A DNA stretch of 64,000 nt from positions 999-64,998 of the forward strand of contig DASPQV010000042.1 in assembly GCA_035624785.1 (NCBI GenBank). The letters are read 5' to 3'. Within the stretch, counting starts at the first letter, position 1. Every line of letters starts with the position of its first letter. The translations under genes and the position numbers were made by a program. Of this stretch, positions 17,099 to 52,294 are shown one piece after another. The notes beneath the pieces are model-generated. The model did no database searches, had not been told where the DNA came from, and saw only the letters and a program-made list of their open reading frames with translations. The DNA comes from Candidatus Binatia bacterium (GTDB lineage Bacteria > Chloroflexota > Dormibacteria > Aeolococcales > Aeolococcaceae).

Positions 17099-17100
17099 TT

Positions 17101-17133: not shown

Positions 17134-17199
17134 CCGCGCCGACGGCCGCTACGTCTCATGGGGCGGCCGACCGCCTCCCGCTCCGGCGGCCCCGCCCCC

Positions 17200-18630: not shown

Positions 18631-18727
18631 GCCGTCATGATCGGACGAAATCCCAGCTTGGGCTACAAGGGGGCCCGCTCCGTCGGCGGCCTCCGGGCCG
18701 GCCTCCAGGGCGGTCGCGGCGCGGGCC

Positions 18728-20411: not shown

Positions 20412-20444
20412 CAGATTGAATCGAGATTAGGAGACACGAGACCA

Positions 20445-20837
20445 ATGGCCATCAAGAGCATCACCCCCGAGGAGTTCGTGGAGGCGCTGCCCAACTGGAC
20501 CGTCCTCGACGTCATCAACGCGGTCAAGCTCATGGAGGAGCGGCTCGGGATCAAGGCCGCCGCACCCGTGGCGGTGGCCGCAGCCCCGGCCGCCGCTCCG
20601 GTAGAGGCCGCCCCGGTCGAGGAGCAGACCGAGTTCACGGTGGTCCTGACCGCCGTCGGCGACGCCAAGATCAACGTCATCAAGGCGGTCCGCGAGATCA
20701 CCGGCCTGGGGCTGAAGGAAGCCAAGGACCTGGTCGACGCCGCCCCCAAAGCAGTTCGCGAGGCCATCCCCCGGGAAGAGGCGGACCAGGTGAAGGCGAA
20801 GCTCGAGGGCGCCGGCGCCAGCGCCGAGATCAGGTAG
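20445..20837 (+). CDS. rplL: 50S ribosomal protein L7/L12
   Basis: [36 protein letters not shown], an Ala/Pro hinge, then [24 protein letters not shown]. Confidence 0.95.
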
Positions 20838-21121
20838 CCGCCCCGCCCCGCCTCAGCCCCACCCAGCCGCTGCCCCGGCGGGCGGCCCCGGTTTGGGCAG
20901 CGCCCGACCGGGGTACGATGGTTGACCTGGCAACCATGGTCGGCGACCGGGCGGACATCCGTTCGGCGCAGCACAAGCCTGTCTCTTGGGCGCGGGAAAA
21001 CGCTCCCTCGTGGAGCGCGCATGACCACATGCGCGGGAAGCGCCGGCTTTGGTATGCTGTCAGATTGTGCCCGTCGCCGCCGGTGCCCGCGCGTAGCCGC
21101 TTGTCAGGGGAACTCTAGCAC

Positions 21122-24646
<3,525 letters not shown>

Positions 24647-24896
24647 GCCATATGCCGAGCCGCGGAGGTGGTGCTTCGCTGCGGCCCGGACGTCGGAACG
24701 GCTTGACCGCCGTTCCGCGTCCTCTGCTCGGCGCGGTTGCAACCCGCGCCTGCGCAGCGCCTTCGCTCAGCACGCACCTTCGCGTCTCCCCTCCAGCGCG
24801 CACCAGGTCGCCGGTGCCTGGTTACGCTGGTCTCAGCTCGAATGCTCCGGCCGGCGGCAGCGCCGGCATGACGTGCCCACCAGCATGTGAAGGTCA

Positions 24897-29255
<4,359 letters not shown>

Positions 29256-32685: not shown

Positions 32686-34416
32686 ATGGCCGCGGTCGAG
32701 GTCAGCCGGAGGGCCCGCCCGCAGACCGGGCAGCGGAGCCCGTGGCGGGAACGCCTGGACGGGCTCGCCTCACCCAGCGGCATGCTCCTCATCGCCGCCC
32801 TGGTGGTGGCGGCCTTCGCGGTCACCACGACCGAGCGGGATCCCGACTTCTGGTGGCACCTCCGCACCGGCCAGCTGCTCCTCGCCAACCATCTCCAGCT
32901 GCTCGGCACCGACCCCTACACCTACTCGGTGCCCGGGCATGCCTGGACCATGCACGAGTGGCTGTTCGAGGTCTGTATCGCCGAGCTCTACAGCGTGGGA
33001 GGCATCGGTGCCATCGTCCTGGTCCTGAGCGCGCTGACCTGGCTCGGCATCCTGGCCATGGTCGGTCGCACCCGGCTGCTCACCCGGAGCCGCGTCGCCA
33101 TCGGCCTGGGCATCCTGGTCGCGGTCATCGCCGCCGATCCGATCTGGGGACCACGCGACCAGATGATCGACTTCACCTTCGCCTGCGTCGTCCTCCTGCT
33201 GGTGGAGCGCTACCTGACCGGGGGAGGCCGGTGGCTCTGGATCCTCCCTCCCCTCTTCCTGCTCTGGAGCAACCTGCATGGCGGCTTCGTGATCGGCCTG
33301 GTCTTCATCGCGGCCATAGCCGCCGCAGAGGCGCTCGGGGCTCGTCTCGGGCTGCCCGAACCGGCCCCCCTCCGCCGATCCGGCTGGCTGGCTCTGACCA
33401 CCCTCGGCTGCGGTCTGATGTCCATGGTCAACCCGAACGGGCCCGGGATCCTGATCTACGCCTGGGCAACAGTGGCCTCGCCGGCCCAGCAGGCCCTGAT
33501 CCTGGAGTGGCAGTCACCCAACTTCCAGATGGAGGAGGTCCGGGCCTTCGCCGTGATGCTGGTCAGCCTGGCCGGCTTCATCGTGGTCAACCGCCGGCTG
33601 CGCGCCCGCGACCTGGTGCTGGTCGCCGGGACCGCGGCTCTGGCCCTGGAGTCGGTGCGCAACATCGCGCTCTTCGTGGCTGCGGCGACGCCGGTGTGGA
33701 GCGAGCAGCTGGCGATCCTGACGAGCCGGCTCCGCGAGCAGCGAGACGGCCGGCGTCACCGCGCCCTGGCAGCGGCGACCGGTGAGCCGGCCGATGATCC
33801 GGAGGCGACCTCTCGGGCGGCGCCCCCGCCAGCGCCGCCACCCCCGCTCCGGCGAGGCGCCCCTCCCTTCAGCTTCCGGGTGGCGGTGCTCGGGATCGTG
33901 ACCGTGGCGCTGCTCGGCGGCTACATCGGCCTCCGGCTGGCGCCCTCCCTGGCCGCGGCCCCCGGCGATCTCAGCTATGCGCGCACCTATCCGGTCTGCG
34001 CCAGCCAGTGGCTGCGCTCCGGACCTCACGGGCTGCGCATCTTCAACCAGTACGGGGAGGGCGGCTACCTGGCCTGGAGCCTGGCCGGCACGGGTGACCG
34101 GATCTTCGTTTTCGGCGACGCCGCCCTGATGGGCGACAGCCTCCTCTACACCTACGCTCAGGTGATCGGCGCCGAGCCCGGCTGGCAGGGGGAGCTCGAG
34201 CGATACGGGACCCAGGTGGTCCTCTTCGACACCGGCACCCCGTTCGACCAGGTCCTGCGTTCGAGCCCACGCTGGGTTCGCGTCTACCACGACCCGCTGA
34301 GCGACGCCTTTGTGCTCAGAGACCAGGAGGCGGCTCTGCGGCTTCCTCCCCAACCGCGGCCCACCGGCACCTGCTCGCTGCTGGCGGCCCAGGGCTTGGG
34401 GACGGCCTCGTCGTGA
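32686..34416 (+). CDS. polytopic integral membrane protein, paralog 1 (GT-C-like fold suspected; family unassigned)
   Basis: 576 aa with ~11-13 predicted TM helices. Has a DPDFWWHLRTGQ loop motif and a soluble C-terminal domain. Start may be an internal ATG near 32779. Confidence 0.7.
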   Translation: MAAVEVSRRARPQTGQRSPWRERLDGLASPSGMLLIAALVVAAFAVTTTERDPDFWWHLRTGQLLLANHLQLLGTDPYTYSVPGHAWTMHEWLFEVCIAELYSVGGIGAIVLVLSALTWLGILAMVGRTRLLTRSRVAIGLGILVAVIAADPIWGPRDQMIDFTFACVVLLLVERYLTGGGRWLWILPPLFLLWSNLHGGFVIGLVFIAAIAAAEALGARLGLPEPAPLRRSGWLALTTLGCGLMSMVNPNGPGILIYAWATVASPAQQALILEWQSPNFQMEEVRAFAVMLVSLAGFIVVNRRLRARDLVLVAGTAALALESVRNIALFVAAATPVWSEQLAILTSRLREQRDGRRHRALAAATGEPADDPEATSRAAPPPAPPPPLRRGAPPFSFRVAVLGIVTVALLGGYIGLRLAPSLAAAPGDLSYARTYPVCASQWLRSGPHGLRIFNQYGEGGYLAWSLAGTGDRIFVFGDAALMGDSLLYTYAQVIGAEPGWQGELERYGTQVVLFDTGTPFDQVLRSSPRWVRVYHDPLSDAFVLRDQEAALRLPPQPRPTGTCSLLAAQGLGTASS

Positions 34417-36110
34417 CCCAGGCTCTGCCGATCGCCGCCCCCTCCCGGAGTGAGCAGCTCGGGTCCCCACCGCGCGGCTCGCCAGTCACCGCCGCGGCCT
34501 GGCTGGGGACCGCCTTCTGCGTCTCACTGCTCGTCACCGTCCAGTCCCTTCACCACGGTGACGAGTGGTGGCACCTGGCCCTCGGACAGCTGATCCTGAA
34601 CGGCGGCATCCCGGCGTCCGAACCCTTCAGCTTCGTCGCCACCCAGCATCCCTGGGTGGACCCGCAGTGGCTCCTCGAGGGGCTGCTGGCGCTGCTGGTC
34701 AAGGCGGGAGGCGACGGCCTCGCCTCTCTGGTCCTGGGTCTTGCCGGCAGCCTGGCCCTGCTCCTGGCTGCCCTCGCCGTGCCCAAGGCTGCCCGGGTGC
34801 CGCCCGGCTGGCGCGCTGCGGCCATGCTGCTGGGGGGCGTGACCGGTGGCGTGGCCATGGGCGTGGGCGGCCAGACGATCACCGCCTTGGGCGTGGCGGC
34901 GACCCTGCTCATCCTCCGCAGATGGCGTGACGGGAGCCGCCGGGCAGTCTGGCTGCTGCCCCCGCTCTACCTTCTGTGGGCGAACCTGGACCCCGCGTTC
35001 GTCGCCGGACTGCTGATCCTCGCCTGCACCCTGCTGATCCACCGGGCGACCGGGGGCCGCAGGGGAGCGCCGGCATGGTCACCGGCCACCTCGCTCGCGG
35101 TGATCGGGGTGGGCGCCGCCGCCGCGACCGTGCTCGGCAGCCTGGGGCTCGGGGTCGCCGCGCTCGTCCTGCTGTGGGCAGCGTTCCGCCCCGTGCCTGT
35201 GGAGCCGGGCAGCCGCCGCCGGTCACTGCTGCTGGCGTCAGCCCTCGCCGCCCTGGTCACCCTGGCGAATCCGGCCGGACCGGGCCTCTACGGCTATGTC
35301 GCCGAGACCCTCGGCAACCCGATGCTCTCCCAGCTGCTCGCCGGCTGGCAGTCGCCCAACTTCCACGACATGGTGACCCGGCTCATCGAGATCGTCGCCG
35401 GGCTGCTTCCCCTCTGCTGGCTGCTGGCCCGGCGGGTCCGGGTCCCCGACGCGCTGCTCGCCACCGCCCTCTTCCTGGTCACGCTCCAGGCGGTCGGCGC
35501 CGTCAGCCTCTTTGCCCTGGCCGCCATCCCTCAGCTGGCTGAGTACGGCTGGGCTGCCTGGCACCAGCGGGCTCCGGGGGGCCTGCAGCGACGCCTCGGG
35601 GTCAGGGTGGCACCGCCGGTCGCCGTCGCGGTCGCGGTCGCGCTGAGCGGGGTTTCGCTCGCCGTGGTCGTGCCCCGGACCAGCTCGGCAGCGGCGGTCC
35701 GGTTCGAGAGCGCCAACGAGCCGCGGGCCGCCGCCGCCTACGTGGCCCTCCACTTCCCCGGTCAGCGACTGCTCAGCTCGGACAGTGACGCCAGCTACCT
35801 CGCCTACCGCTTCCCCAGCCAGCGCGTCGTCTTCGTCTACGACGAGATCGGGATCTTCGGCACCGGCCCGCTCACCGACTATCACAACCTCGCCAACCTC
35901 TCCGGAGACTGGAAGGGCCTCCTGGTCACCTATCACCTGAACCACGCGGTGCTCAGCGCCACCAGCGTCGACGCGGCGGCGCTCCTTGAGCTGGGCTGGA
36001 CCGTCGACTGCTACGACGCGGCCAGCGACCGGGTGGTGATGTCGGCCGGCGGAGGACCGCCGACAGCCTCGCCCCCGGCCCCCAGAGAAGCCGCATCCTG
36101 CAGCTCCTGA
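34413..36110 (+). CDS. polytopic integral membrane protein, paralog 2
   Basis: 565 aa with the same architecture and the corresponding motif GDEWWHLALGQ. GTG start in a GTGA overlap with paralog 1. Confidence 0.7.
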   Translation: MTQALPIAAPSRSEQLGSPPRGSPVTAAAWLGTAFCVSLLVTVQSLHHGDEWWHLALGQLILNGGIPASEPFSFVATQHPWVDPQWLLEGLLALLVKAGGDGLASLVLGLAGSLALLLAALAVPKAARVPPGWRAAAMLLGGVTGGVAMGVGGQTITALGVAATLLILRRWRDGSRRAVWLLPPLYLLWANLDPAFVAGLLILACTLLIHRATGGRRGAPAWSPATSLAVIGVGAAAATVLGSLGLGVAALVLLWAAFRPVPVEPGSRRRSLLLASALAALVTLANPAGPGLYGYVAETLGNPMLSQLLAGWQSPNFHDMVTRLIEIVAGLLPLCWLLARRVRVPDALLATALFLVTLQAVGAVSLFALAAIPQLAEYGWAAWHQRAPGGLQRRLGVRVAPPVAVAVAVALSGVSLAVVVPRTSSAAAVRFESANEPRAAAAYVALHFPGQRLLSSDSDASYLAYRFPSQRVVFVYDEIGIFGTGPLTDYHNLANLSGDWKGLLVTYHLNHAVLSATSVDAAALLELGWTVDCYDAASDRVVMSAGGGPPTASPPAPREAASCSS

Positions 36111-38950: not shown

Positions 38951-40312
38951 ATGAGCGTGACCCCAGGCGTCGCCGTCGACGCCCACCCCGCGGGTGCGGC
39001 GCCAGCCTCCACGTCGCCCAACGGCGCCCACACCATCCCGGACCTGCCCACGGTCCTGGACCGTGACCGGCGAGCCGGCGTCGAGCGGGTCATCGAGCTG
39101 GCCCGCTGGATCGTGCTGGTATTCGCGGCTGTCACCGTCAACTTCCCGGGCAACATCTACAGGAACAGCGACGGAGTGGACCTGTTGCTCGGCATCTGGG
39201 CAATCTTCACCCTGGCCACCACGGTCGCGCTCCTAATCAACCGGATCCCCACCCGACGGGTACAGTACGCCATGCTGGCGCTGGACATCGCGGTCGCCAG
39301 CGGCCTGGTCGACCTCACCGGCGGCTTCCAGTCCGAGCTGGGAATCGTCTTCTATCTGGTCATCATCGCGAGCAGCCTCCGGTTCGGTCTGGCCGGGAGC
39401 CTGATCTGCGCGTCCAGCATCACCCTGCTCTATCTCGGCATTGGCCTTCTCGACCACGGCCAGCTGAACGGACCCACCATCAACCTCTTCGCCCAGCGGC
39501 TGTTCCTCTTCATGGTGATCGCCCTCATCAGCGGGCTGCTCTCGCGAGAGATGATCCAGAGCCGGGCCCGCCAGCTCACCCACACATATGAGCTCGAAGC
39601 CGTCGCGTTCAACGAGCTTCGCGAGGTGGACCGGATCAAGAGCGACTTCATGATGCTCGCGTCACACGAGCTGCGTACGCCGCTCACCAAGATCAAGGCG
39701 TGGGTCAGCCTCATGCAGGACGCCGGGGACCGCCTGCCCCAGAGCGCCCGGGACGAGGGCATCCGCGAGTTGAGGGTCGAGTCCGAGCACCTAGCCAGGC
39801 TCACCGACAACCTGCTCGCCATCGCCCAGCTGGAGTCCGGCGAGATCCGGCTCAAGACCACGGCGTGCGACCTGGCGAACGTGATCGGAGAGACGATCTC
39901 CCGCTTCATCGAGTCAGCGGACCGGAGCCGGTTCCTGGTCACCATCACCCCCGACGCTGCCCGAGTGATGGCGGACGCCGAGCGCCTGGCGCTGACCCTG
40001 GCTTGCCTCGTCGACAACGCTCTCAAATTCTCACCGGAGTCGGAGCCGGTCACCATCACCAGCCACCGTGACGGCGCTTACGCCCTGATCGGGGTCCACG
40101 ACAACGGCCGGAGGATCCCAGACTCCGAGGCGGACCGGGTCTTCGCCTCCTTCTACCAGGTGGAGTCCCCGCTGCTCCGCCAGCGCGGCGGCTTCGGCGT
40201 CGGCCTCTACCTGGCCCGCCAGCTCGTCGAACGGATGGGCGGCCGCATCTGGATCGACAACAGCCGGGTGCGGGGCAACACTTTCGTGATAGCCCTACCG
40301 GGACACATCTGA
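38951..40312 (+). CDS. membrane-anchored sensor histidine kinase (HisKA + HATPase_c)
   Basis: N-terminal multi-TM sensor, H-box MMLASHELRTPLTKIKAW, N-box LVDNALKFSP, G-boxes HDNGRRIP and GGFGVGLYLARQLVE. Confidence 0.85.
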   Translation: MSVTPGVAVDAHPAGAAPASTSPNGAHTIPDLPTVLDRDRRAGVERVIELARWIVLVFAAVTVNFPGNIYRNSDGVDLLLGIWAIFTLATTVALLINRIPTRRVQYAMLALDIAVASGLVDLTGGFQSELGIVFYLVIIASSLRFGLAGSLICASSITLLYLGIGLLDHGQLNGPTINLFAQRLFLFMVIALISGLLSREMIQSRARQLTHTYELEAVAFNELREVDRIKSDFMMLASHELRTPLTKIKAWVSLMQDAGDRLPQSARDEGIRELRVESEHLARLTDNLLAIAQLESGEIRLKTTACDLANVIGETISRFIESADRSRFLVTITPDAARVMADAERLALTLACLVDNALKFSPESEPVTITSHRDGAYALIGVHDNGRRIPDSEADRVFASFYQVESPLLRQRGGFGVGLYLARQLVERMGGRIWIDNSRVRGNTFVIALPGHI

Positions 40313-40686: not shown

Positions 40687-41514
40687 ATGAGCCCCTTCAC
40701 GGATTACAGCATCCTCAACCCGGCGGCTTCAGCGGCCAGCCGCGCCGGCGTGACCGAGGCGACAGTGCTGGTGATCGATGACGATCCATCGATGCATGAC
40801 ATCCTCACCGTCCTCGGCCAGCAGCACGGCTTCAGCATCCAGTTCGCCGAAGACGGCCTGGACGGCGTCCGGCTCGCGGAGTCCACCGACATCGACCTGA
40901 TCCTGCTCGACCTCAGCCTGCCTGGGCTGACCGGCTTCGACGTCTGCCGGCGGCTCCGTTCGGCCGGAGTCGACGTGCCGATCATCATGGTGTCAGCGAG
41001 CTCCGACCCGGTCGATGTGGTGGTGGGGCTGGAGATCGGCGCCGACGACTACATCATCAAGCCCTTCGAGGTTCGGGAGCTCGCGGCCCGCATCAACGCG
41101 AAGCTGCGGCGCCAGCGCACCTCGCAATCGCAGGTGCGCCCTGGTCGGCTCAAGTTCCCGGGCCTGATCGTGGACGTCGGCCGCCACGAGGTGCTCCGTG
41201 ACGGCAGGCCGGTGACCCTCACCCCCACCGAGTTCGACCTGCTCGCCCTGCTGTCGGCGTCGCCGGGGCGGGTGATCTCCCGCTCCGAGATGATCCAGAA
41301 GGTGTGGGGCCAGGGCGCCGACCTCGATCTCCGCTCCGTGGACGCGCACGTTTACCGGCTTCGCCGCAAGATCGAGCCGGAGGGACCGCGGCCCACCTAC
41401 ATCCACGCGGTCCCGGGGATCGGCTACCGGTTCGAAAGACGCGGCCTCAACGAGAGGCTGGCCAAGGCCCAGGAGATCAGTCCCGAGCCCAACGGGACGC
41501 AGCTGGTCGGCTAG
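40687..41514 (+). CDS. OmpR/PhoB-family response regulator
   Basis: Receiver domain (VLVIDDD...LILLDLSLP...KPF) plus a winged-helix (LTPTEFDLLALL...RSVDAHVYRLRRKI). I moved the start to the internal ATG (MSPFTDYS...); the listed ORF begins 63 codons earlier inside the repeat region. Confidence 0.85.
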   Translation: MSPFTDYSILNPAASAASRAGVTEATVLVIDDDPSMHDILTVLGQQHGFSIQFAEDGLDGVRLAESTDIDLILLDLSLPGLTGFDVCRRLRSAGVDVPIIMVSASSDPVDVVVGLEIGADDYIIKPFEVRELAARINAKLRRQRTSQSQVRPGRLKFPGLIVDVGRHEVLRDGRPVTLTPTEFDLLALLSASPGRVISRSEMIQKVWGQGADLDLRSVDAHVYRLRRKIEPEGPRPTYIHAVPGIGYRFERRGLNERLAKAQEISPEPNGTQLVG

Positions 41515-41594: not shown

Positions 41595-42035
41595 TCAGAC
41601 CGGCGCAGGCTGCTGACGCCGGGCGGCCCGGCGGCGCCGTCCATCCGGCTGGCGGAGCACCCACTGGCCCCGCTCGTTCATCTCGGCCAGCCGCGCGTCC
41701 ACCAGCTGCCCGCTCAGCAGCGACAGGGTGCGGCCCTGGGGCAGCGAGAAGTCGAGGCAGGGCACGACGTCACCACCCCAGACCCGGCGCTCGGTCTGGC
41801 CGGAATAGACGGCCACGCTCCGGGTCACCCGACGCTGATGCGGCCCCCCAACCGAGTACGAGATCCGGTACATCGACCCGGGCCGGAGCCCGAAGTGCTC
41901 CACCGGATTCGGCTGGATCTCCCGAGTGCTGTCACGCACCAGCCGCTGGCGGTGGGGCAGGTCGGAGCTACTGAATAGAGAGGCTTGAACGGACATCTTG
42001 GTGCGATTATCCAGGCTCCCCGAGTACACGCCCAC
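41595..42035 (-). CDS. hypothetical protein, possibly PilZ-like
   Basis: 146 aa. RRVTR...(22 aa)...DFSLPQG loosely resembles the PilZ RxxxR...DxSxxG c-di-GMP motif. This is tentative. Confidence 0.4.
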
Positions 42036-42226
42036 GACGCCGGGTTACGCGTGGGTCACGGCCCCGTCGCCATTCACCGCTCGGGAGCGATGCCGAGAGG
42101 GGGGACGCCACGGCCACACCGCTGTCGCAGGCAAGATACGACGGGGCGACTCAGAGTCCCCTGGGGGCTGAGTTCGGCCAAGGTAAGTGTGATGACATCG
42201 ACGCTTTCCTGGGCGCGTTCCCAGAG

Positions 42227-43000
42227 GTGAGCATGAGCATCGGTCTCGCCTGCGTCTCCGGGAAGGGCGGGGTCGGCAAGACCACGACCGCCATCAACCT
42301 GGCCGCAGCCCTGGCCGAGCTCGACCGGAAGGTGCTGACCGTGGATTGTGACCCTCAGTCCAACCTGACCAGCGGGCTCGGCCTCAATCCCTACGAGCTC
42401 GAGACGAGCCTGGGGGACGTGCTGACCGGCCGCGCCAGCGCCCAGCAGGCCATCGTTGCGACCGAGTGGAGCAACCTCCACCTCCTTCCAGCCACGCCAG
42501 ACCTCACCGCCATCGAGGCTGAGCTGCCATCCGGGCTGGGCAGAGAGACCCTGCTGCGCGAGGCGATGACCCGGGATGGCGTTCGCTCGGCATTCGACTT
42601 CATCGTCTACGACACGCCGCCGAGCTTCGGCCTGCACACCGTCAACGCCCTCGCTGCCACCGACTACGTGCTGGTCCCGCTCCAGATGTCCGGCTTCGCG
42701 GTGCGGGGGCTGAAGGAGGTGCTGCGCACCGTGGTCCTGGCCCGAAGCCGGCTCAACCCGGAGCTGCGGGTCCTCGGCATCGTCCCGACCTTCGTCAACC
42801 TCCACACCAACTTCAGCCGCCAGCTCCTGAGCGGCCTCGCCGATCTCGCCGGGCTGCGGGTCTTCGAGACCGTGATCCCGCCCACGGTCAAGATCCAAGA
42901 GACATCCCTGGCGGGCATCCCGGTCACCGCCTACGCCCCAGGCTCCAAGGCCGCCGCCGCCTACAGGCAGCTGGCCGAAGAGGTGCTGCGGAGTGTCTGA
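42227..43000 (+). CDS. parA: ParA/Soj-family P-loop ATPase
   Basis: Deviant Walker [25 protein letters not shown], then DCDPQSN and DTPPS motifs. Confidence 0.85.
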
Positions 43001-43640
43001 CGCCGTCCACGACCCCGACCCGAACGACGCGGCAGCCCGCGCCTTGCTGCGGACGACCCCGCTGGCGCGGTGGCTCGCCCCAACCTCCGAATCCCGCCTG
43101 GAGCGCATTGCCTGCCGGGACATCGAGCCCAGACCATGGCCCGCGCCCGCGGGGCTCGACGACGAGCTGGTGGCCCTGGTCCTGAGCGTCCGCCAGCGCG
43201 GCGTCGTCGAACCCGTGCTCCTCCGCCCCCTCGAGGGGAGCCGCTTCCAGGTGGTGCTCGGCGCCCGCCGCATGGAGGCGGCGCGTCGCTGCGGTCTGAC
43301 CGAGGTCCCGGCTATCGTCCGTGACCTGGACGAGGCTGAGGCCACCCTTCTGGCGGCATGGAGCGTGATGCCCAGGATGCGTGCTGGTGAGATCCTCGAG
43401 GTCGCGTCGCGGCTCACCGCCGCCGGGGTGAGCGACGCCGAGATCGCCGTGCTTCTCGGCGCGGACCCGCGGGCACACCCGGCATCTCCGGATCCCGGTT
43501 GCTCTCTGATCGGTGGCGGGGCACCGCTGCGCTTCGCCGGTGCGGCGACCCCGGTCCAGCTGCTCCTGTCGGCCCTGGGCGAGCGCGGAGGGACGACGCT
43601 CGCCTGCCTCGGCGGCGTCGAGCCCGAGCTGCTGGGCTGA
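42993..43640 (+). CDS. ParB N-terminal-domain (ParB/Srx-like) protein
   Basis: [43 protein letters not shown] matches the ParB box II / GERR region. The start overlaps the parA end by 8 nt. Confidence 0.7.
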
Positions 43641-43668
43641 CGCAAGGCTATCGGGGGAGGCTAGACGC

Positions 43669-44262
43669 ATGACCGCCCGGCAGCCGGCCGGCGGAGGTCC
43701 GGAGGAGGACGAGCTGCTCAAGCAGTGGGCCTTCCTGGACCGGTTGGTGGAGCGCCAGGCCGCCCAGCTTCGCGCCGGGATCCAGGACGCCGAGGAGGCC
43801 GACGAGGGCCTCACCGAGCTCCAGGGATTGCACCGCGAGCTCGAGGCTGCCCGCGGTGAGCTCAGCCAGGCCCAGGCGGCCCATCGTGCCGCGGTCGCCG
43901 AGGCTCGCCGGGCGCGGGCGCAGCTGAGCGCGCTGGCCGCCGCCCACCAGCAGGTCCTCGACGATCGGGATGCGCTGCGCCAGCGGCTGGACGGCCTCGA
44001 CGGGGAGATGGCCCGATGGCGGACGCGAGGCGATGGGCTGGAGGCCGAGCTGCAGCGGCTGGAGCTGAGAAGCCGCGGCCAGCTCCAGGAGGTGATGGCC
44101 CGGCTCAGCGAGGCGGAGGCGCAGCGGCAGAGCTCGGAACGTGGCCGCCTCGAGGTCCTGGAGAGTCTCCGGGCCGCCCATCTCGAGGTGGAGCAGCTCA
44201 GGGCCCGGATCGCCGCCTCGCGCCGCGGCCTCTGGCACTTCCGGCGCCGCCCCGGCGGCTGA
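43669..44262 (+). CDS. coiled-coil protein (hypothetical)
   Basis: 197 aa of heptad-rich E/A/R/L/Q sequence. Good SD, GGGGGAGG, 9 nt upstream of the ATG. I trimmed the start from the longer listed ORF. Confidence 0.55.
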   Translation: MTARQPAGGGPEEDELLKQWAFLDRLVERQAAQLRAGIQDAEEADEGLTELQGLHRELEAARGELSQAQAAHRAAVAEARRARAQLSALAAAHQQVLDDRDALRQRLDGLDGEMARWRTRGDGLEAELQRLELRSRGQLQEVMARLSEAEAQRQSSERGRLEVLESLRAAHLEVEQLRARIAASRRGLWHFRRRPGG

Positions 44263-44282
44263 GGCGCAGGGGCGCGCCGAGG

Positions 44283-45059
44283 TCAGGCGGGAACCGGCGC
44301 CGCCGGCCGGCGGCCCTGGGCGAGGGCGATGAACGAGCGCAGCGCCTCGGCGGGGACCGGACGGACGGCCAGCTCCTGGAGCAGCGACTGAGCCTCCTCG
44401 AGCAGCACCGGGTCGGGCATGTCACCCTTGCCCGAGGTGGCCATCACCCAGCCGGAGGAGAACCAGAGCACGGTCTCGAAGGCCAGACCGTTGGCGGTGA
44501 GCCCGTAGAGCAGCGACTCGGTGAGACGCGAGAGCGGGCGCTTCGCGTTACAGACAACTATGCCACGAATTCGATCGAGGACACCCAGCTCCTGAGCCAG
44601 ACCGACACTGAGCGCAGCGGCGCGCAGGGAGAGCAGATCGAGAGCTGTGGGAACCACGATCCGATGGGCGACCTTCATGGGCCCGAGCAGAGAGGGTTCG
44701 TGGGGATGGGTGTCGAGCAGCACCACGTCGCAATCCTCGAGCACCGGCTCCAGGACGCTGCGGAGCTGCTGCTCGTGAAGCGGTTCGTGGTTGAGGCTTC
44801 GATGTCCAGGGACGGTCCGGATGCCGAGGGGATGGTCGACCAGCGCCTGAGCCAGGGTGACGCGACCGCGCAGCACGTCGGCGATGGTGATGGCCCGCTT
44901 GGCCTTCTCCAGGGCATTGCTGAGCCCGCCGGTGGGGTCGAGGTCGATGGTCACCACCCGGAGCCCGCTGCTGGCCGCGGCGGCCGCCAGGGCGTAGGTG
45001 GTGGTCGTCTTGCCAACGCCACCCTTCAGTGACGCGATCGTGATTATTTCCGCAGGCAC
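44283..45059 (-). CDS. second ParA/MinD-like ATPase
   Basis: [27 protein letters not shown] Walker A. I set the start at the GTG giving Walker A at residues 11-18; the listed TTG start lies 15 codons upstream. Confidence 0.8.
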   Translation of the reverse strand: MPAEIITIASLKGGVGKTTTTYALAAAAASSGLRVVTIDLDPTGGLSNALEKAKRAITIADVLRGRVTLAQALVDHPLGIRTVPGHRSLNHEPLHEQQLRSVLEPVLEDCDVVLLDTHPHEPSLLGPMKVAHRIVVPTALDLLSLRAAALSVGLAQELGVLDRIRGIVVCNAKRPLSRLTESLLYGLTANGLAFETVLWFSSGWVMATSGKGDMPDPVLLEEAQSLLQELAVRPVPAEALRSFIALAQGRRPAAPVPA

Positions 45060-45078
45060 GTCCGTAGAATATCCCGGG

Positions 45079-46677
45079 ATGGCAACAACCGCGCCATTTG
45101 TCAAGCTCCTGCGACAACTCTCCGGGGCCCGGGACGATTACCGGACTGGCGCCCTGGACATCTCGTGGGAGGGCGGCAAGGCCACCATCTTCCTGGTGTT
45201 CGGCCAGCCCAATCACGCGGTGCTCGACCTCTCGGATGGCCATCACCTGGAAGGCCAGGCCGCACTAGGCGCACTGGTCAATCAGCTACCCGCACGCTTC
45301 CAGGTCTCGCCATGGCGCAAGGAGGTCGGGCGCTCCGAGACCCTGAAGTGCAGCCTCGAAGAGCTGATGGAGCCGTTTGCCCAGCTGGCCGGCACGGTCT
45401 CTGCGGAGGCCGGGGTGAGACGCGGCCAGGAGGGCGGTGAGCCCGCTTCGGCCGGCGCCCGGATCGAGTTCGGCCTTGGTGACTTCCCGCTGCTGCCGCT
45501 CGGGACCACGCTCTGGGCGGACGCGTCGGCCAGCGTGGTCCATCTCGACGTGCTCATCCCCAATCTTCCCGATGCCCTGGTCGTGCTCACCGGCTCCCAG
45601 CTGAGAGCCGCCGGGGTGATCGTCCACCACCGGATCATCGACGCGGTCTGGATCGACGATGAGGACAAGCTCATCGGTGACGCGGCCGCGATGGCTCTGC
45701 TGGGGGCAACCCAGGGCACCGTCTCCGGCTACCAGCTCGGCGACCCCGACGTCGCCGAGGCGCTGACCATGCTCTGGCGCCTTCCCATCGCCTACCGAGC
45801 CCTCCCAGCCGCCTGGGTGGACGGCAGGGCGCTCCTTGCCGACCTGGAGCGGCGGCGCCGGGATTGCGCCATGGTGGTGGCCGGCAGCGAGCTGGGCGTG
45901 GCCCTGATCTCCGCCGGCCGGCTGATGGCCGTCTACACGGAGAGGGACCGCCAGCCGGTCGCTTCGACGGAACGCCTCCTCGCCCTGCTGCGGGCGCCGG
46001 GAGCCCGGCTCACCCTGCGCCAGGGCGTGGAGGAGGGACCGGACGAGCAGCTCCCCGAGGAGAGCTTCCACGCCTACGTCCAGGGGGCCGAGGAGGTCCC
46101 GACCGAGGCCGGTCAACCCGGCTCTCCCGGGGCGCCGCACGAGCCGTCCGAACCCGCATCCAGCGGCTCCCGAGCTGAGACAGCGGCGGTGGAGCCGGGG
46201 GAAGCGGAGGCGGTCGAGGCAGCGCCCGAAGCCGGCAGGCCCGGGCCGGAGGCGGAATCGACGCTTCTCAAGTCGGTGCCGTCGCTGGCCGGCGCGGCGC
46301 CGGACACCTCCCCATGGCTCGCCGCCCTCCGGGAGCAAGTGCTCGGCGCCTCCCCGGGTGAGGCCCCTCCCCCACCACCGGCGCCGCCACCGGTCGCAGC
46401 CGGCGCCGAGGCATGGCTGGAGCCGCCCGCGACGGAGGCTGTCGACTTCACCGGCGTCAAGCGGGACCTGGTCCAGATCGGAACCCTCTGGCTGGGCAGT
46501 GAGGACGCCACCGAGGCCATCGAGATGATCGAGCGGGCCCGACCCACCGTCGAGGACATCATGAGCACCATCGACGCGATCCGGAACCTGACCCCACCGG
46601 GGCACGAGCCGTCGGTGGTCCAGGCGATGGCCCGAGAGATGCGCTTCCACGCTGCGGAGCACCTGAGCGGGCTCTGA
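45079..46677 (+). CDS. DUF4388-like repeat protein with Pro/Ala-rich linker (hypothetical)
   Basis: Three segments resemble the DUF4388 pattern (e.g. FVKLLRQLSGARDDYRTGALDISWEGGKATIFLVFGQPNHA). C-terminal region is P/E/A-rich. ATG at 45079 after GGGAT. Confidence 0.55.
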   Translation: MATTAPFVKLLRQLSGARDDYRTGALDISWEGGKATIFLVFGQPNHAVLDLSDGHHLEGQAALGALVNQLPARFQVSPWRKEVGRSETLKCSLEELMEPFAQLAGTVSAEAGVRRGQEGGEPASAGARIEFGLGDFPLLPLGTTLWADASASVVHLDVLIPNLPDALVVLTGSQLRAAGVIVHHRIIDAVWIDDEDKLIGDAAAMALLGATQGTVSGYQLGDPDVAEALTMLWRLPIAYRALPAAWVDGRALLADLERRRRDCAMVVAGSELGVALISAGRLMAVYTERDRQPVASTERLLALLRAPGARLTLRQGVEEGPDEQLPEESFHAYVQGAEEVPTEAGQPGSPGAPHEPSEPASSGSRAETAAVEPGEAEAVEAAPEAGRPGPEAESTLLKSVPSLAGAAPDTSPWLAALREQVLGASPGEAPPPPPAPPPVAAGAEAWLEPPATEAVDFTGVKRDLVQIGTLWLGSEDATEAIEMIERARPTVEDIMSTIDAIRNLTPPGHEPSVVQAMAREMRFHAAEHLSGL

Positions 46678-46679
46678 CC

Positions 46680-46976
46680 GTGAGCCAGGTGATCGATGCC
46701 CTCACCGGGCACGCCGCCATCGTCCTGGCCGTGGTCGCCATCGCCGAGGGCGTGCTGGCGGCGTGGCTGCTGCGGCGCAACGAGGAGCTGAGGATCCGGC
46801 TCCGCCGCGCCGGCGAGGCTGCTGACGAGGCGGCCCGGGCGGCCGCTCTCGCTGCTCCCGGAGGCATCGATCCCGAGATCGTCATCAACCTGCTCCGGGC
46901 CGGCCAGGCGGTCACCCTGGAGACGGTCCGCGAGCTGATGACCCAGCACGACGGGCTCGAAGCCGTCCCCCGCTGA
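46680..46976 (+). CDS. small hypothetical protein with N-terminal TM helix
   Basis: 98 aa, HAAIVLAVVAIAEGVLAAWLL, then an amphipathic helix. GTG start 2 nt after the preceding stop. Confidence 0.4.
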   Translation: MSQVIDALTGHAAIVLAVVAIAEGVLAAWLLRRNEELRIRLRRAGEAADEAARAAALAAPGGIDPEIVINLLRAGQAVTLETVRELMTQHDGLEAVPR

Positions 46977-47016: not shown

Positions 47017-47559
47017 CTAGCCCTCGATCTCCTGATAGGCAGCGTCAGCCAGCCGCCACGCCAGCTCGGCCGCCTCCTCCCGCAGCTTGAGGAGGGCATC
47101 CTCGGTGACCCGCAGGATCTGCACGCTCTGACGGATCGACCAGCCGGTGCGCTGGGCGCCTTGGGTGGGCATGGCCGTCCCCCGCCAGCCGAACGCTGCC
47201 GAGGCCCGGCCCGCCGACCGCTCCCCATCCCAGAGCACGGAGCTGGGCATGGCGGCCACCTGGAACTCGACGACCCCGGCGGCGGCGGTGTCGCCCAAAC
47301 CCGCCGGCGGCCCTCCTCGGCGCGCCTCCATGGCGCCGGTCCCGGGCCACGATGCCGGCCGCCCGGGGGTAGGTGCCGAGACCAGCGATCGCGCCGACAC
47401 CAGCGGGGCGGCTCGGGAGGCCGCCGGGCGCCCGCTGGCCAGCGCGGTGAGGGCGGCGGCCAGCTGCTCCCCGCTGTCGAAGGCGCTGCCGTCTCCGAAC
47501 CAGTCTTCGCCGAGCAGGTCGTCGTCGACCGAGACCGCCGGCTCGATGGGCACGGTCAT
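47017..47559 (-). CDS. hypothetical protein (acidic N-terminus, helical C-terminus)
   Basis: Start trimmed to ATG 47557-47559, preceded by GGAGGGGGAGG. Divergent from cpaF-1. Composition is protein-like, unlike the plus-strand frame. Confidence 0.45.
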
Positions 47560-47785: not shown

Positions 47786-49060
47786 GTGAGCGTCGCCGCT
47801 TCCCGACTCGACAACCGCTACATGGAGGCCTTGGGCCCCCTCCGGCCGCTCGTCGAGGACGACAGCCTGACCGAGATCATGGTCAACGGTCCGGAGATGG
47901 TCTACGTCGAGCGGAAGGGCAAGATCCTGCTCACCGACATCCGGTTCGACGACGAAGCCCATCTGCTCCGCGTGATCGACACCATCGTCTCCTCGGTGGG
48001 ACGTCGCGTGGACGCCCGCACCCCGCTCTGCGACGCACGGCTGCTCGACGGATCCCGAGTCAACGTGGCCATCCCGCCGGTCGCCCTGGACGGGCCGCTG
48101 CTCACCATCCGCAAGTTCTCCAAGGATCCCTACCAGGTCTCCGACCTGATCGGCTTCGGCACCCTGACCCAGGAGGGAGCCTCCTTCATCCAGGCGTGCG
48201 TCCTGGCCCGGGCCAACATCGTGATCTCGGGCGGGACCGGCGCCGGCAAGACCACCCTGCTCAACGTCTGCTCGGGATTCATCCCCATCGACGAGCGGAT
48301 CATCACCATCGAGGACGCCGCCGAGCTGCAGCTGCACCAGGAGCACGTCTGCCGTCTGGAGTCGCGGCCCTCCGATGTCAACGGTGAGGGCCAGATACGG
48401 ATCCGCGACCTGGTCATCAACTCGCTGCGGATGCGGCCCGACCGGATCGTCGTCGGCGAGTGCCGCGGCGGCGAGGCCCTGGACATGCTCCAGGCGATGA
48501 ACACCGGCCACGACGGCTCGATGACGACCATCCACGCCAACAGCCCCCGCGACGCCCTGGCCCGCCTCGAGACCCTGGTGCTGATGGCCGGCATGGATCT
48601 CCCCCTCAAGGCGATCCGGCAGCAGGTGGCTGCCGCGATCAACCTGGTGATCCAATTGGCTCGCCTCAAGGACGGGTCCCGCAAGATCGTCTCCGTCACC
48701 GAGGTGGTGGGGATGGAGGGCGAGACGATCACCATGCAGGAGATCTTCCGGTTCGAGCCCAGGGGCGCCGACCCGGCCACGGGCAAGATCGTCGGGGAGT
48801 TCGCCCTGACCGGGATCAGGCCCCAGATCATCGACCGCCTCTTCGACATGGGGATCCCGCTGCCGCCGCGCCTGATGCAGCTGTTCCCCGACCGGCGGCA
48901 GCTGCAGCACGCGGCCATGGTCAGCGCCGCCCGCTCCCAGCCCCAGCCGGGCAACGGGATGCCGGGCATGGGAGCCGGGCCGGGCTACGGTCCGCCCCCC
49001 GGCCTGGGGATGATGCCCGGGATGCCGCCGGCGCCGCCCGGTCCCGGACGTCGCGGCTGA
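47786..49060 (+). CDS. cpaF: CpaF/TadA-type secretion ATPase (type II/IV secretion NTPase)
   Basis: [18 protein letters not shown], Walker [13 protein letters not shown], Asp/His boxes [36 protein letters not shown] start with AGGAG 8 nt upstream; the 213 codons before it in the listed ORF are S/P/R junk. C-terminal Gly/Pro/Met-rich tail. Confidence 0.85.
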
Positions 49061-49141: not shown

Positions 49142-50338
49142 TCAGACCCCGAGGATCTCGAGGATGCGGCGCTCGTCGATGGGCGGGCTGGACGGCCGGG
49201 CGAGCAGGAAGCCCTGGCCGTGGGTCACCCCGATGTTGCGAAGAGCGCGCAGCTCAGCCTCGGTCTCGATGCCCTCGGCGACGATGGTGGTCTGGGTCTC
49301 CCGGGCGAAGGCCACCAGAGCGTAGGAGAGGGCCCGCCGCGGCCGGTCACCGTCGATCCCGCGGGTGAGCGAGATGTCGAGCTTGATGATGTCGGGGGAG
49401 AGCAGGAGGATGTGCCGAAGACTCGCGAACCCGGCCCCGGCGTCGTCGACCGCCACCCGCACTCCAGCGTCGCGAAGCGGACGCAGGACCCGGGCCAGCG
49501 CCTCGTAGTCGGCCACCGGGGCGTGCTCGGTCATCTCCATGACGATCCGGTCCTCGGGCACCGCGCCCAGCATGTCGCCGAGGTCGCGATGCAGCAGGGT
49601 GGTCGGTGACACGTTGAGGGAGAGGTAGGCGCTGGTGGGCAGCTCCGGCAGACCGGCCAGAGCCGCGCTGATCGCGAAGGTCTCGAGGTCCTCGCGCAGG
49701 CCGACGTCCTCCGCCTCCTGGAACCACTGCAGAGGCATGCCGGTATCGAAGCGGGCCAGCGCCTCGACCCCGCTGACCAGGCCTCGGGCCAGGTCGACGA
49801 TGGGCTGGTAGACGGGCCGGACCCCGCCGTGCTCGATGACCGTGCGGATCCGGGTCAGGATCCTCTCCCTGGCGGCCTCGGCGGCCTCCTTGCCGGCCAG
49901 CTCGCCGCTCAGCTCTCGGACCACCGTGCTGGCCACGTCGGCGGAGAAGGCGGACTCGCCGCGAAGCACCCGCTGGATGGTCTTGGTGACCTCGTCGGGC
50001 ATGGAACCCTTGACCAGGTAGGCGCTGGCACCGGCGCGGAGCATCTCCAGGATGCTGGCCCGGTCGCCGTAGGCGGAGAGGGCGACGATGCGGGTCTCCG
50101 GGCTGCCAGCCAGGATGCCCCGGGCAGCCTCGGGGCCGCCACCGCCGGGCATCTTGACGTCCAGGATGGCCACGTCCGGACGCTCCTTGATCGCCTCGGC
50201 GATGGCGGCGTCCGCGTCGGCGGCCACCGCCACCACCTCGAGACCGTCCTCGAGCTCGAGGAGCTCGCGGAGAGCATCGCGGATGTTGGCATCGTCATCC
50301 GCGATCAGCACCCTGACCCTGAGCTGGTCGCCGATCAC
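49142..50338 (-). CDS. response-regulator receiver fused to EAL domain (c-di-GMP phosphodiesterase)
   Basis: REC (VLIADDD...ILDVKMP...ALSA). EAL core has PVYQPIVDL, EALAR, EMTE, DDAGAGFASL, KLD and EGIET motifs. Confidence 0.85.
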   Translation of the reverse strand: MIGDQLRVRVLIADDDANIRDALRELLELEDGLEVVAVAADADAAIAEAIKERPDVAILDVKMPGGGGPEAARGILAGSPETRIVALSAYGDRASILEMLRAGASAYLVKGSMPDEVTKTIQRVLRGESAFSADVASTVVRELSGELAGKEAAEAARERILTRIRTVIEHGGVRPVYQPIVDLARGLVSGVEALARFDTGMPLQWFQEAEDVGLREDLETFAISAALAGLPELPTSAYLSLNVSPTTLLHRDLGDMLGAVPEDRIVMEMTEHAPVADYEALARVLRPLRDAGVRVAVDDAGAGFASLRHILLLSPDIIKLDISLTRGIDGDRPRRALSYALVAFARETQTTIVAEGIETEAELRALRNIGVTHGQGFLLARPSSPPIDERRILEILGV

Positions 50339-50644: not shown

Positions 50645-52294
50645 CTACCCCTCGGTGGTCGGTTGGAACAGCTCCTCGGCGACCAGCTCGCCCTGGGCGC
50701 GCAGCGTCTCCATCGCCCTGGGAATGATGCCGGTCGGGGTCATCTCGCCGATCACCTGACCGGTGTCAGGATCGATCCCCCGCTGTCGGAAGGTGAAGAT
50801 CTCCTGCTGGCATACCTCTCCGCCTTCGGCGCCCAGCACCTCGGTGATGCTCACCACCTTGCGGGTGCCGTCGCGAAGACGGGACTGGTGAACGATGACG
50901 TTGATGGCCGAGCCGATCTGCTCGCGGATGGCACGGGAGGGCAGCTCCGCGCCGGCCATCAGGACCATGGTCTCCAGACGGCTGATGCAATCCCTGGGGT
51001 TGTTGGCGTGGAGCGTGGTCAGCGACCCGTCGTGACCGGTGTTCATGGCCTGGAGCATGTCCAGGGCCTCCCCGCCGCGGCACTCGCCCACCACGATCCG
51101 GTCCGGGCGCATCCGCAGGGCATTGATGACCAGCTCCCGGATGGTCACCCGGCCGCGCCCCTCCACGTTGGCCGGCCTGGTCTCCAGGGTGACCACGTGC
51201 TCCTGGCGCAGCTGCAGCTCGGCGGCGTCCTCGATGGTGACTATCCGCTCGTCCTCGGGGATGAAGCTCGAGAGGATGTTCAGGGTGGTGGTCTTTCCAG
51301 AGCCAGTGCCGCCCGAGACCACCATGTTCAAGCGGGCCCGGACGCAGGAGCGCAGGAAGGTCACCATGCCCGCGGTCACGGAACCGAACCGGAGCAGGTC
51401 GTCGGAGGTCAGGGCCTCCTTGGCGAACTTCCGGATGGTGACCACCGGGCCGACCAGGGACAGCGGGGGGATGATGACGTTGACCCGGGACCCATCCTTG
51501 AGGCGGGCGTCGACCATCGGCGACGACTCGTCCACCCTCCGGCCGACGGTGCTCACGATCCGGTCGATGACCTGCATCAGCTGTTCCGTGCTCTCGAACA
51601 CCACCGGGCTGCGCACCAGCTTGCCCCGCTCTTCGACGTAGACCTGCTCCGGGCCGTTGACCATGATCTCGGTCAGCTCCGGGTTGGCGAGCAGCTCTTC
51701 CAGGGGACCCAGACCCAAGACGTCGTGGATCAGGATCTCGATGACCCGCTGCCGGTCCTGACGGCTGAGGGTCAGGCTCTGCTCGACGATGACCTCGCTG
51801 ACCAGCTCGGCGATCTTCTGCTCCACCACGTCGGGAGGCGCGGAGTCGGTGTTGCCAGCCAGCTCCTCGACCAGCCGCTGATGAACGCGGGAGCGGAGCT
51901 GGCTGTACGCGCCGCCCTGCTGCCTGGGGTGGACCCGGGAGCCGGCGGTCCGGTTGAGCAGTGACGCGGCCCGGGGACCGTCCGGCGGGCCACCCGGCTC
52001 GGCGCCCCTGCCGAGCAGGTGGGGGGGCACCGGCGGGGCGGGAGCGGACCGGCCGTAGGTGGGAACCGCGGGCTGCCGGGCCGGCGAGGCCGGCGCCGGA
52101 GGGTTGGTGACCAGGGACCGCGCCAGCCAGGCCGGCCTCTCGGACGCCGGCTCGGAGACCGCCGGGGCCTGGCCCGGGCCGGGCGTCTGCCCCGGGGCGG
52201 GCGGCAGCGGCTGAGCCGGAGCCTGCGGGGAAGGCGCCGGTGGGGCGGCGTTGCCTTCCTCGGCCTTGCGCTGGACGCGATCGAGAAGCGACAT
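50645..52294 (-). CDS. cpaF: second CpaF/TadA-type secretion ATPase with ~170-aa Pro-rich N-terminal region
   Basis: [63 protein letters not shown]. Confidence 0.85.
   Translation of the reverse strand: MSLLDRVQRKAEEGNAAPPAPSPQAPAQPLPPAPGQTPGPGQAPAVSEPASERPAWLARSLVTNPPAPASPARQPAVPTYGRSAPAPPVPPHLLGRGAEPGGPPDGPRAASLLNRTAGSRVHPRQQGGAYSQLRSRVHQRLVEELAGNTDSAPPDVVEQKIAELVSEVIVEQSLTLSRQDRQRVIEILIHDVLGLGPLEELLANPELTEIMVNGPEQVYVEERGKLVRSPVVFESTEQLMQVIDRIVSTVGRRVDESSPMVDARLKDGSRVNVIIPPLSLVGPVVTIRKFAKEALTSDDLLRFGSVTAGMVTFLRSCVRARLNMVVSGGTGSGKTTTLNILSSFIPEDERIVTIEDAAELQLRQEHVVTLETRPANVEGRGRVTIRELVINALRMRPDRIVVGECRGGEALDMLQAMNTGHDGSLTTLHANNPRDCISRLETMVLMAGAELPSRAIREQIGSAINVIVHQSRLRDGTRKVVSITEVLGAEGGEVCQQEIFTFRQRGIDPDTGQVIGEMTPTGIIPRAMETLRAQGELVAEELFQPTTEG

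Follow-up and report, generated by a model that had tools for sequence, protein, structure and literature searches.

A ParA gene cluster conserved in Candidatus Dormibacterota pairs one ATPase with a PATAN-like scaffold and another with a truncated ParB

Introduction

A 64-kb stretch of bacterial DNA (contig DASPQV010000042.1, hereafter the window) carries at 42.2-46.7 kb a cluster of five genes that encode two ParA-family ATPases and three putative partner proteins. Here we show that this cluster consists of two modules. The core module is a divergent pair, an ATPase (ParA2) and a protein of 532 amino acids (aa) with three PATAN-like modules that we refer to as the scaffold. The accessory module is a trio, a second ATPase (ParA1), a truncated ParB-like protein (ParB-N) and a coiled-coil protein. 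The arrangement recurs across the phylum Candidatus Dormibacterota, beside genes for CpaF-type secretion ATPases. To judge from sequence and gene context, the cluster most likely places or gates pilus-motor machinery rather than segregating DNA. The locus appears to combine two known themes, cargo positioning by ParA/MinD ATPases and the control of type IV filament motors by PATAN domains.

ATPases of the ParA/MinD family place chromosomes, plasmids, carboxysomes, chemoreceptor arrays, flagella, division sites and Tad machines, and their partner proteins define the cargo. The Dormibacterota are an abundant phylum of soil and permafrost with no cultured member. An initial annotation, made from the letters of the window, had described the five genes as one candidate module for the positioning of non-DNA cargo, along the lines of McdAB and PomXYZ. 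The observation is confirmed by the analyses below, whereas the interpretation is supported in part. Our literature search brought up no publication about ParA-PATAN pairs, about ParB-like proteins together with pili, or about partition or pili in Dormibacterota.

Results

Anatomy of the cluster

The window has ~70% G+C, and one coding frame per gene is marked by a third-position GC content (GC3) of 0.85-0.90. GC3 and independent gene calls on the identical ENA contig both bear out the five genes and their coordinates. The corresponding NCBI records (HYA00654-HYA00659) are named ParA family, ParB N-terminal domain-containing, hypothetical, ParA family, DUF4388 domain-containing and hypothetical.

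The ParA1 gene (+ strand; 42233-43000 from an ATG, or from 42227 with a GTG; 255-257 aa) overlaps the start of the ParB-N gene (42993-43640, +, 215 aa) by 8 nt (GTGTCTGA), in keeping with the translational coupling that had been proposed. The coiled-coil gene follows (43669-44262, +, 197 aa), with the strong Shine-Dalgarno sequence GGGGGAGG 8-15 nt ahead of its ATG. It converges, across a gap of 20 bp, on the ParA2 gene (44283-45059, −, 258 aa). The GTG of ParA2 and the ATG of the scaffold gene (45079-46677, +) are divergent starts separated by a spacer of 19 bp (45060-45078). All of these junctions are as originally described.

A scan of 41.9-47.2 kb for sigma-70 and terminator consensus sequences gave no match. 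Upstream of ParA1, at 42113-42150, lies a block conserved within the clade, CCACACCGCTGTCGCAGGCAAGATACGACGGGGCGAC, which holds a 5-bp inverted repeat (GTCGC...GCGAC). This block may be a promoter or operator, perhaps a target of the adjacent OmpR-type regulator.

Conservation and modularity

With each GTDB species represented by a single genome, a scan gave 67 species-level loci, taken with flanks of ±10 kb; two of them lie on complete chromosomes of 3.2-3.3 Mb. Synteny was tabulated by tblastn of 23 window proteins against these loci. Homologs of the scaffold and of ParB-N come almost exclusively from metagenome-assembled genomes of Candidatus Dormibacterota (AD3), and the arrangement is found again in ~60 of the 67 loci. 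The genomic context thus spans the phylum and is found on chromosomes.

Nearly every locus with sufficient flank has the same gene order. It runs from two polytopic membrane paralogs through a GAF kinase, a TPR protein, a PilS-like kinase, an OmpR regulator and a 146-aa protein (unk146, −) to ParA1, ParB-N and the coiled-coil protein. ParA2 (−) and the scaffold come next, followed by a 98-aa protein (sm98), a 180-aa protein (unk180, −), the secretion ATPases T2SSE1 and T2SSE2 (−), and CAP, ABC and FtsX genes. The median identity to the window is 85% for T2SSE1, 81% for the OmpR regulator, 72% for ParA2 (66 loci), 65.5% for ParA1, 54% for the scaffold, 50% for ParB-N and 47% for the coiled-coil protein.

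In a basal clade of five loci (L024-L027 and L061) the trio is absent from the locus, and the ParA2-scaffold pair is kept. Here ParA2 is still 70-75% and the scaffold 35-37% identical to the window, and unk146 follows ParA2, on its strand, at a distance of ~150 bp. The trio therefore seems to have been inserted between these two genes. A further locus, L039 (8018-8960), has lost ParA1, while a degenerate ParB-N (174 aa, with GMQR in box II) and a 129-aa coiled-coil protein with an EEQWAFLD motif remain; ParB-N and the coiled-coil protein are thus able to persist without ParA1. Since the divergent pair is kept where the trio is missing, we take it to be the core of the locus. The cluster had been proposed to be a single cassette in which coiled-coil adaptors serve the ATPases. 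This did not hold: there are two separable modules, and ParA2 pairs with the PATAN-like protein and not with the coiled-coil protein.

The window proteins are deposited as 'Candidatus Binatia bacterium', yet virtually all the homologous loci that share this synteny over 25 kb bear the label Dormibacterota, and the label of the source genome looks wrong. Stray labels on other homologous loci are Chloroflexia, Actinomycetes, Gaiellaceae and Saccharimonadales.

ParA2 and the divergent spacer

ParA2 matches AAA_31 (2e-18) and has strongly conserved motifs, a deviant Walker A box (KGGVGKTT, residues 11-18) and LLDTHPHEP. It reaches the cut-off of no NCBIfam model: it scores 57 bits against minD_bact (cut-off 213) and 28 bits against TIGR03815, the actinobacterial CpaE-like model (cut-off 154), and all MinD and MipZ scores are far below cut-off. 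Its matches in the PDB, to Soj, MinD, FleN and an orphan mycobacterial-type ParA, reach only ~1e-11. On these scores ParA2 is best placed as a ParA/MinD-family ATPase with a subfamily of its own, and it is not a TadZ, because it has no receiver domain. The short C-terminal tail, AEALRSFIALAQGRR, is amphipathic (muH 0.55), which is only a hint of MinD-like membrane binding.

Across the phylum the 19-bp spacer hardly varies, either in length or in sequence. Within it lies TAGAAT, the only copy in the window, 8 nt before the scaffold ATG and with no Shine-Dalgarno sequence; the complement of TAGAAT lies 6-7 nt before the ParA2 GTG. A consensus scan found no full sigma-70 promoter at the spacer. 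The pattern suggests back-to-back −10 boxes for two leaderless divergent transcripts.

A scaffold with three PATAN-like modules

An AlphaFold model of the 532-aa protein, built with 27 family sequences, has confidence scores (pLDDT) above 90 for aa 10-106 and 130-320. These regions are predicted to form three alpha/beta modules with an identical order of helices and strands: module 1 (45079-45402, aa 1-108), and modules 2 and 3 (45460-46044, aa 128-224 and 225-322), which repeat a single alpha/beta module in tandem. A disordered linker rich in Pro, Glu and Ala follows (46045-46434, aa 322-452, pLDDT <50), which varies in orthologs from ~100 to >500 residues. The protein ends in a four-helix domain (46435-46677) with the conserved motif WLG ... 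MAREMxxHAAExLSG. The same domain also ends two outgroup relatives, P0343 and P0322. A Foldseek search of the PDB with the full model returned only sliding clamps and PCNA (TM-score 0.09-0.12, root-mean-square deviation ~20 Å), which we judged to be an artefact of the three repeated alpha/beta modules.

The initial annotation had called these modules DUF4388-like. DUF4388 is the PATAN domain; in the cyanobacterial regulator PixE it binds the N-terminal domains of the pilus extension ATPase PilB1 and of PilC and sets the site of pilus action (bioRxiv 10.1101/2021.06.11.447907). PF14332 is the only family that matches the 532-aa protein, and it does so below threshold (15 bits against a cut-off of 25, E=0.025, aa 20-65), so the assignment misses the Pfam standard. 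Sub-threshold PF14332 matches were found in 20 of the 27 family members (best 2.2e-5), a precomputed match exists for P0071, and the PGAP/NCBI name of the 532-aa protein itself is 'DUF4388 domain-containing'.

When the first 322 residues were used in an exhaustive profile search, 251 proteins were recovered. Two giant repeat proteins among them, P0317 and P0325, look like low-complexity junk. The outgroup relative P0343 is built like the scaffold. Its residues 16-95 are a bona fide PF14332 domain, with a score of 62 bits, and module 1 aligns to them in a search with the family profile (iE 1.3e-6). The modules were also compared with each other by hhalign. With Dormibacterota sequences only, an alignment too shallow for the purpose (Neff ~2), module 1 was not significantly similar to modules 2 or 3. 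With outgroup sequences included, modules 2 and 3 match at E=1.8e-10 (probability 97%), modules 1 and 2 at E=7e-5 (63%) and modules 1 and 3 at E=1.7e-3 (15%). Because of this repeat homology and the alignment to P0343, 'three DUF4388-like modules' appears right as a statement of remote homology. The initial annotation had named failure in a profile search as a refutation, and the DUF4388 relationship survives such searches at this remote level. By these profile comparisons, module 1 is a remote PATAN homolog, and modules 2-3 form a distinct, unannotated double module that is distantly related to it.

The ParA1-ParB-N-coiled-coil trio

ParA1 matches AAA_31 (5e-50) and CbiA (8e-24) in Pfam and has an intact deviant Walker A box (GKGGVGKTT). 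It matches the ParA of PDB entry 8ray at 1e-50 and Thermus Soj at 3e-46 over the full length, whereas McdA structures match at only 2e-15. ParA1 is, by sequence, a Soj-type ParA. At a conserved Arg of Soj (...YDGRT...) it has a His, which is at least 90% conserved in 52 orthologs. B. subtilis Soj requires this Arg for non-specific DNA binding.

The initial annotation had given ParB-N only the N-terminal box of ParB and a short helix-turn-helix-like tail, and this description is accurate. PF02195 (1.9e-15, aa 38-119) is its sole domain. The protein aligns to residues 15-142 of Thermus Spo0J (1vz0), and the alignment ends after the first helices of the helix-turn-helix. In the AlphaFold2 model three helices of the helix-turn-helix region are followed by disorder at aa 157-186 and a short conserved pair of C-terminal helices. 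An alignment of 21 family members agrees, with three helices only, then a variable Pro-rich stretch and the small conserved helix pair. The recognition helix and the C-terminal dimerisation domain were found neither in these alignments nor in the model nor by Pfam. A Foldseek search with the model matches ParB, Noc, PadC (6ryk, E=2e-6) and KorB, so that ParB-N is predicted to have the ParB/Srx fold.

The nucleotide-pocket motifs of ParB are degenerate in the family. Box I has lost QPR (it reads RPW-PAP), box II reads G[A/S]RR and not GERR in 21 of 21 members, and box III has lost the Asn of ENLQR (it reads SVMPR). An invariant N-terminal peptide is found where Spo0J has its ParA-stimulating peptide. 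A search of the 64 kb for the canonical parS site TGTTNCACGTGAAACA gave no match at up to 3 mismatches. Because the recognition helix, the dimerisation domain, the GERR and QPR motifs and a canonical parS are missing, ParB-N is predicted to be unable to work as a parS-loaded CTP clamp. By analogy with PadC, it could still serve as a partner of ParA. One longer family member (P0172, 307 aa) is not a canonical ParB; it is a chimera of the N-terminal half of ParB-N with unrelated sequence on a 3-kb contig.

The coiled-coil protein consists to 69% of A, E, L, R and Q, with no Pro between residues 12 and 194, and it is predicted to form a coil. Its family matches are segments of SMC and Rad50 coils only. 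The N-terminal motif EELLxQWAFLDRLVERQA is conserved, and the protein has the same position in most loci.

CpaF-type ATPases, Tad genes and the wider family

The initial annotation had named two CpaF ATPases and c-di-GMP enzymes as neighbours. The ATPases proved to be a constant feature: T2SSE1 (47786-49060, +; PF00437, 4.5e-61) and T2SSE2 (50645-52294, −; 1.3e-65; 54 loci) lie downstream of the cluster in nearly every locus, and in the window 2.7 and 5.6 kb from ParA2. T2SSE1 is the most conserved gene of the block, and T2SSE2 has an N-terminal extension of ~190 aa. The best model for both is TIGR03819 (310 and 330 bits), with scores below its cut-off of 373, and we assign both on this similarity to the CpaF/TadA subfamily of T2SSE ATPases. 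Enzymes of cyclic di-GMP (c-di-GMP) metabolism are present in the window but are conserved only in its own clade; the REC-EAL phosphodiesterase (49142-50338, −) occurs in 16 loci.

Tad genes are found at related loci. In the basal clade, and only there, TadB/C genes lie inside the cluster: L025 (12101-14122) has two T2SSF (TadB/TadC) genes between sm98 and T2SSE1. TadB matches were found in L022 and L024, and L003 (19914-21674) has a CpaB-like SAF protein and TadB downstream of T2SSE2. The window has no such Tad platform genes, and CAP, ABC and FtsX genes follow T2SSE2 there.

The core pair also has relatives in another lineage. Three loci of 53-56% GC (L076, L077 and L078) have a ParA-like gene divergently upstream of a three-module relative of the scaffold; where compared (L076 and L077), this ATPase is 36% identical to ParA2 and 31% to ParA1. 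A TadZ/CpaE-like gene is nearby in L076 and L078, with a receiver-like N-terminus and a P-loop in L076, and L076 also has a Flp pilin with a G/MVEY motif. In L074 (3499-6306) and L075 (2771-6788) scaffold relatives adjoin a convergent 594-aa coupling protein of VirD4/TraG type; one of these relatives consists of modules 2-3 and the C-terminal helices only, and the other has three modules. Given the CpaF-type, Tad and VirD4/TraG neighbours across loci, the recurring theme is an adjacent hexameric secretion ATPase.

Other genes of the window

Of the remaining block, the PilS-like histidine kinase (38951-40312, +; 6TM_PilS, HisKA and HATPase_c in Pfam) is part of the conserved upstream genes (53 loci, median identity 64%). 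The OmpR-type response regulator (40687-41514, +; assigned by Pfam; 58 loci) is among the most conserved genes of the block. The gene for unk146 (41595-42035, −) separates this regulator from ParA1. The gene for sm98 (46680-46976, +; 57 loci) starts 2 bp past the scaffold gene and encodes a single-pass protein with a transmembrane segment, a candidate membrane anchor. The conserved unk180 follows at 47017-47559 (−). Pfam and NCBIfam gave nothing above threshold for the 532-aa, 197-aa, 146-aa, 98-aa and 180-aa proteins, with no match of either kind for unk146. Downstream of the T2SSE ATPases and the REC-EAL gene are CAP, ABC/FtsX and PAS-GGDEF-EAL genes.

Two further features lie upstream. At 32686-36110 are two adjacent paralogous membrane proteins (576 and 565 aa) with ~8-12 predicted transmembrane segments, a soluble C-terminal domain and no Pfam match; this pair starts the conserved block in almost all loci. 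At 12417-29255 a cluster of ribosomal-protein genes (−) is divergent from rpoB (1174 aa) and a long rpoC (1452 aa) (+), as identified by the lengths and order of their open reading frames only.

Discussion

We propose that the locus is a chromosomal, phylum-wide module that sets where or when a Tad-like or other type IV filament-like machine is powered by the neighbouring CpaF-type ATPases, a tentative reading to which we give slightly less than an even chance. The contacts and the cargo in the following outline are what we infer. ParA2 would dimerise on ATP and may dock to the membrane via its amphipathic tail, and the scaffold would be its divergently co-expressed partner. The PATAN-like modules would bind to the CpaF-like ATPases, at their N-terminal domains, or to platform proteins, or to both, much as cyanobacterial PATAN binds PilB1 and PilC. 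The linker and the C-terminal helical domain would, with the putatively translationally coupled sm98, tie the scaffold to the membrane or to ParA2.

In the same outline the trio would descend from a Soj/Spo0J system and no longer read a centromere. Having retained the ParB/Srx fold and the N-terminal peptide, ParB-N would remain a partner of ParA1, and because it is presumably unable to read parS or close a clamp, it would act as an adaptor. The coiled-coil protein would link ParB-N and ParA1 to cargo, so that the trio adds a layer that couples the cargo, or a part of it, to a gradient of ParA1. Inputs may come from the PilS-like kinase and the OmpR regulator, and in the clade of the window also from c-di-GMP. 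A bolder form of the proposal is that ParABS has been repurposed for a protein machine: a ParB that has given up parS reading, clamp closure and probably CTP hydrolysis would couple ParA1, via the coiled coil, to a Tad-type motor complex organised by ParA2 and the triple-PATAN scaffold. This stronger version we regard as doubtful.

Several points weigh against the proposed role in the control of a filament machine. The functional argument rests on synteny and remote homology, in a phylum that is uncultured. No gene for TadB/C, a pilin or a prepilin peptidase was found in the window itself. One locus (L072) carries ParA2 and the C-terminal part of the scaffold with no T2SSE genes. Relatives built of modules 2-3 only adjoin VirD4-type coupling proteins and not CpaF, and for this reason the class of scaffold partners may be broader. 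Finally, ParA1 is as near to chromosomal Soj as the genuine ParAs of other phyla are.

The first alternative is that ParA1 and ParB-N, together with the coiled-coil protein, are a non-canonical chromosome segregation system of this lineage that happens to lie beside a pilus cluster; DNA would be bound through the coiled-coil protein or some other factor, in the way that AspA serves the ParB of pNOB8. ParA1 is of Soj type, its translational coupling to ParB-N is typical of parAB operons, the pair is kept in ~55 species, the predicted fold of ParB-N is nearest to chromosomal ParB and Noc, and there is no canonical ParB among the matches listed. We nevertheless think this explanation unlikely. 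Besides the missing recognition helix and dimerisation domain, the degenerate CTP-pocket motifs and the lack of a canonical parS, ParA1 has a His in place of the Arg that B. subtilis Soj needs for non-specific DNA binding, and the trio is dispensable at the locus, being absent in the basal clade and lacking ParA1 in L039. Nor does the context look like that of an origin. There is no GC-skew turn within the window, and the neighbours are signalling and secretion genes, not gidAB or dnaA. One of the two complete chromosomes (3.23 Mb) carries the locus at 1.11 Mb and the other (3.34 Mb) at 3.03 Mb, in a numbering not known to start at the origin.

A second alternative is that the two ATPase modules are functionally unrelated. 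ParA2 and the scaffold would still serve a Tad-like machine, and the trio would position some other cargo or regulate transcription in the manner of KorB or VirB. The modules are evolutionarily separable, the fold of ParB-N also matches KorB, and the conserved block with its short inverted repeat upstream of ParA1 would suit a regulator. Two observations make us doubt it to much the same degree as a segregation system: the trio apparently went in precisely where ParA2 adjoined unk146, once its operon partner, and has been kept there in ~55 species, and the helix-turn-helix of ParB-N is incomplete.

A role of the cluster in placing the division site, or in some other envelope process, along the lines of PomXYZ, MipZ or MinD is quite improbable. 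A ParA-like ATPase with a coiled-coil partner is the PomXYZ pattern, and ParA2 has a MinD-like amphipathic tail and weak matches to MinD and MipZ models. There are no division genes in the block, though, the minD_bact score is a fraction of its cut-off, and the genes constantly found beside the cluster are those for T2SSE, T2SSF and Flp. Last, a second ParA/ParB pair with a truncated ParB resembles a decaying plasmid partition locus, which the initial annotation had raised as a caveat, but a plasmid remnant is effectively refuted, because the GC and GC3 of the genes match their flanks and because the best plasmid matches in a tblastn search of PLSDB with ParB-N are only 34-43% identical over the N domain, none reaching 80% coverage; moreover, position and order are repeated in ~60 species, two complete chromosomes included, with all genes intact and under constraint.

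How does the locus compare with known systems? The McdAB and PomXYZ paradigm holds as an analogy of general logic, that is, a ParA-family ATPase with a non-DNA-binding partner that bears a protein cargo; McdA was compared by sequence and PomXYZ by this logic, and a sequence relationship was not shown. One of the partners here appears to be derived from ParB and the other from PATAN, and no carboxysome or division genes are nearby. Nor is ParA2 a MinD by its score, and the block has no minC or minE genes. TadZ/CpaE, the PATAN-PilB regulators and PadC are closer than McdAB and PomXYZ.

We know of no PATAN-like scaffold partner for TadZ, whereas such a scaffold is the constant partner of ParA2. 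ParA2, at 258 aa, also lacks the atypical N-terminal receiver domain of TadZ, and outgroup loci have a separate TadZ-like gene alongside the ParA2-like gene. What appears to be shared is a deviant-Walker-A ATPase encoded beside an ATPase of CpaF/TadA type. TadZ/CpaE is the ParA/MinD ATPase of Tad (Flp) pilus loci, thought to place the secretion machine (PMC11407121).

The PATAN regulators PixE, PixG and LsiR of Synechocystis resemble the scaffold in the homology of module 1 and in a gene beside T2SSE-family ATPases. The scaffold differs in having no receiver domain, in its three tandem modules, long disordered linker and novel C-terminal helical domain, in its pairing with a ParA-family ATPase and not with a chemosensory system, and in ATPases of CpaF and not PilB type.

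PadC of Myxococcus xanthus binds CTP. Like ParB-N, it has a ParB/Srx-type nucleotide-binding fold without centromere binding and is a partner or adaptor of ParA, which it recruits to a bactofilin scaffold. ParB-N is without a bactofilin-binding region, no bactofilin gene was noticed in the block, its pocket motifs are degenerate, and it retains the Spo0J-like N-terminal peptide and the three helices of the helix-turn-helix region. Chromosomal ParABS (Soj/Spo0J-parS) shares with the trio a ParA of Soj type and, in translational coupling with it, a protein of ParB fold whose N-terminal peptide is conserved; the missing DNA-reading and dimerisation parts, the altered GERR box, the lack of a canonical parS, the context and the dispensability of the pair set the trio apart.

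What could this locus tell us about the biology of Dormibacterota? It presents two conserved pairings with types of partner that have not been described for ParA-family ATPases, a triple PATAN-like scaffold and a ParB stripped of its DNA-reading parts. Through the scaffold, the world of ParA is linked to the PATAN-PilB mode of regulation. Should ParABS have been repurposed as outlined above, the locus would hold the first adaptor of a secretion or pilus machine to have come from a ParB, and also the first partnership of ParA and PATAN. If the proposed contacts are real, the locus shows a DNA-segregation system turned into a protein-cargo system, and it would offer an initial way into the organisation of cell-surface machinery in Dormibacterota. 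The principle may extend further, because a pair of a ParA2-like ATPase and a three-module protein is also found outside this phylum.

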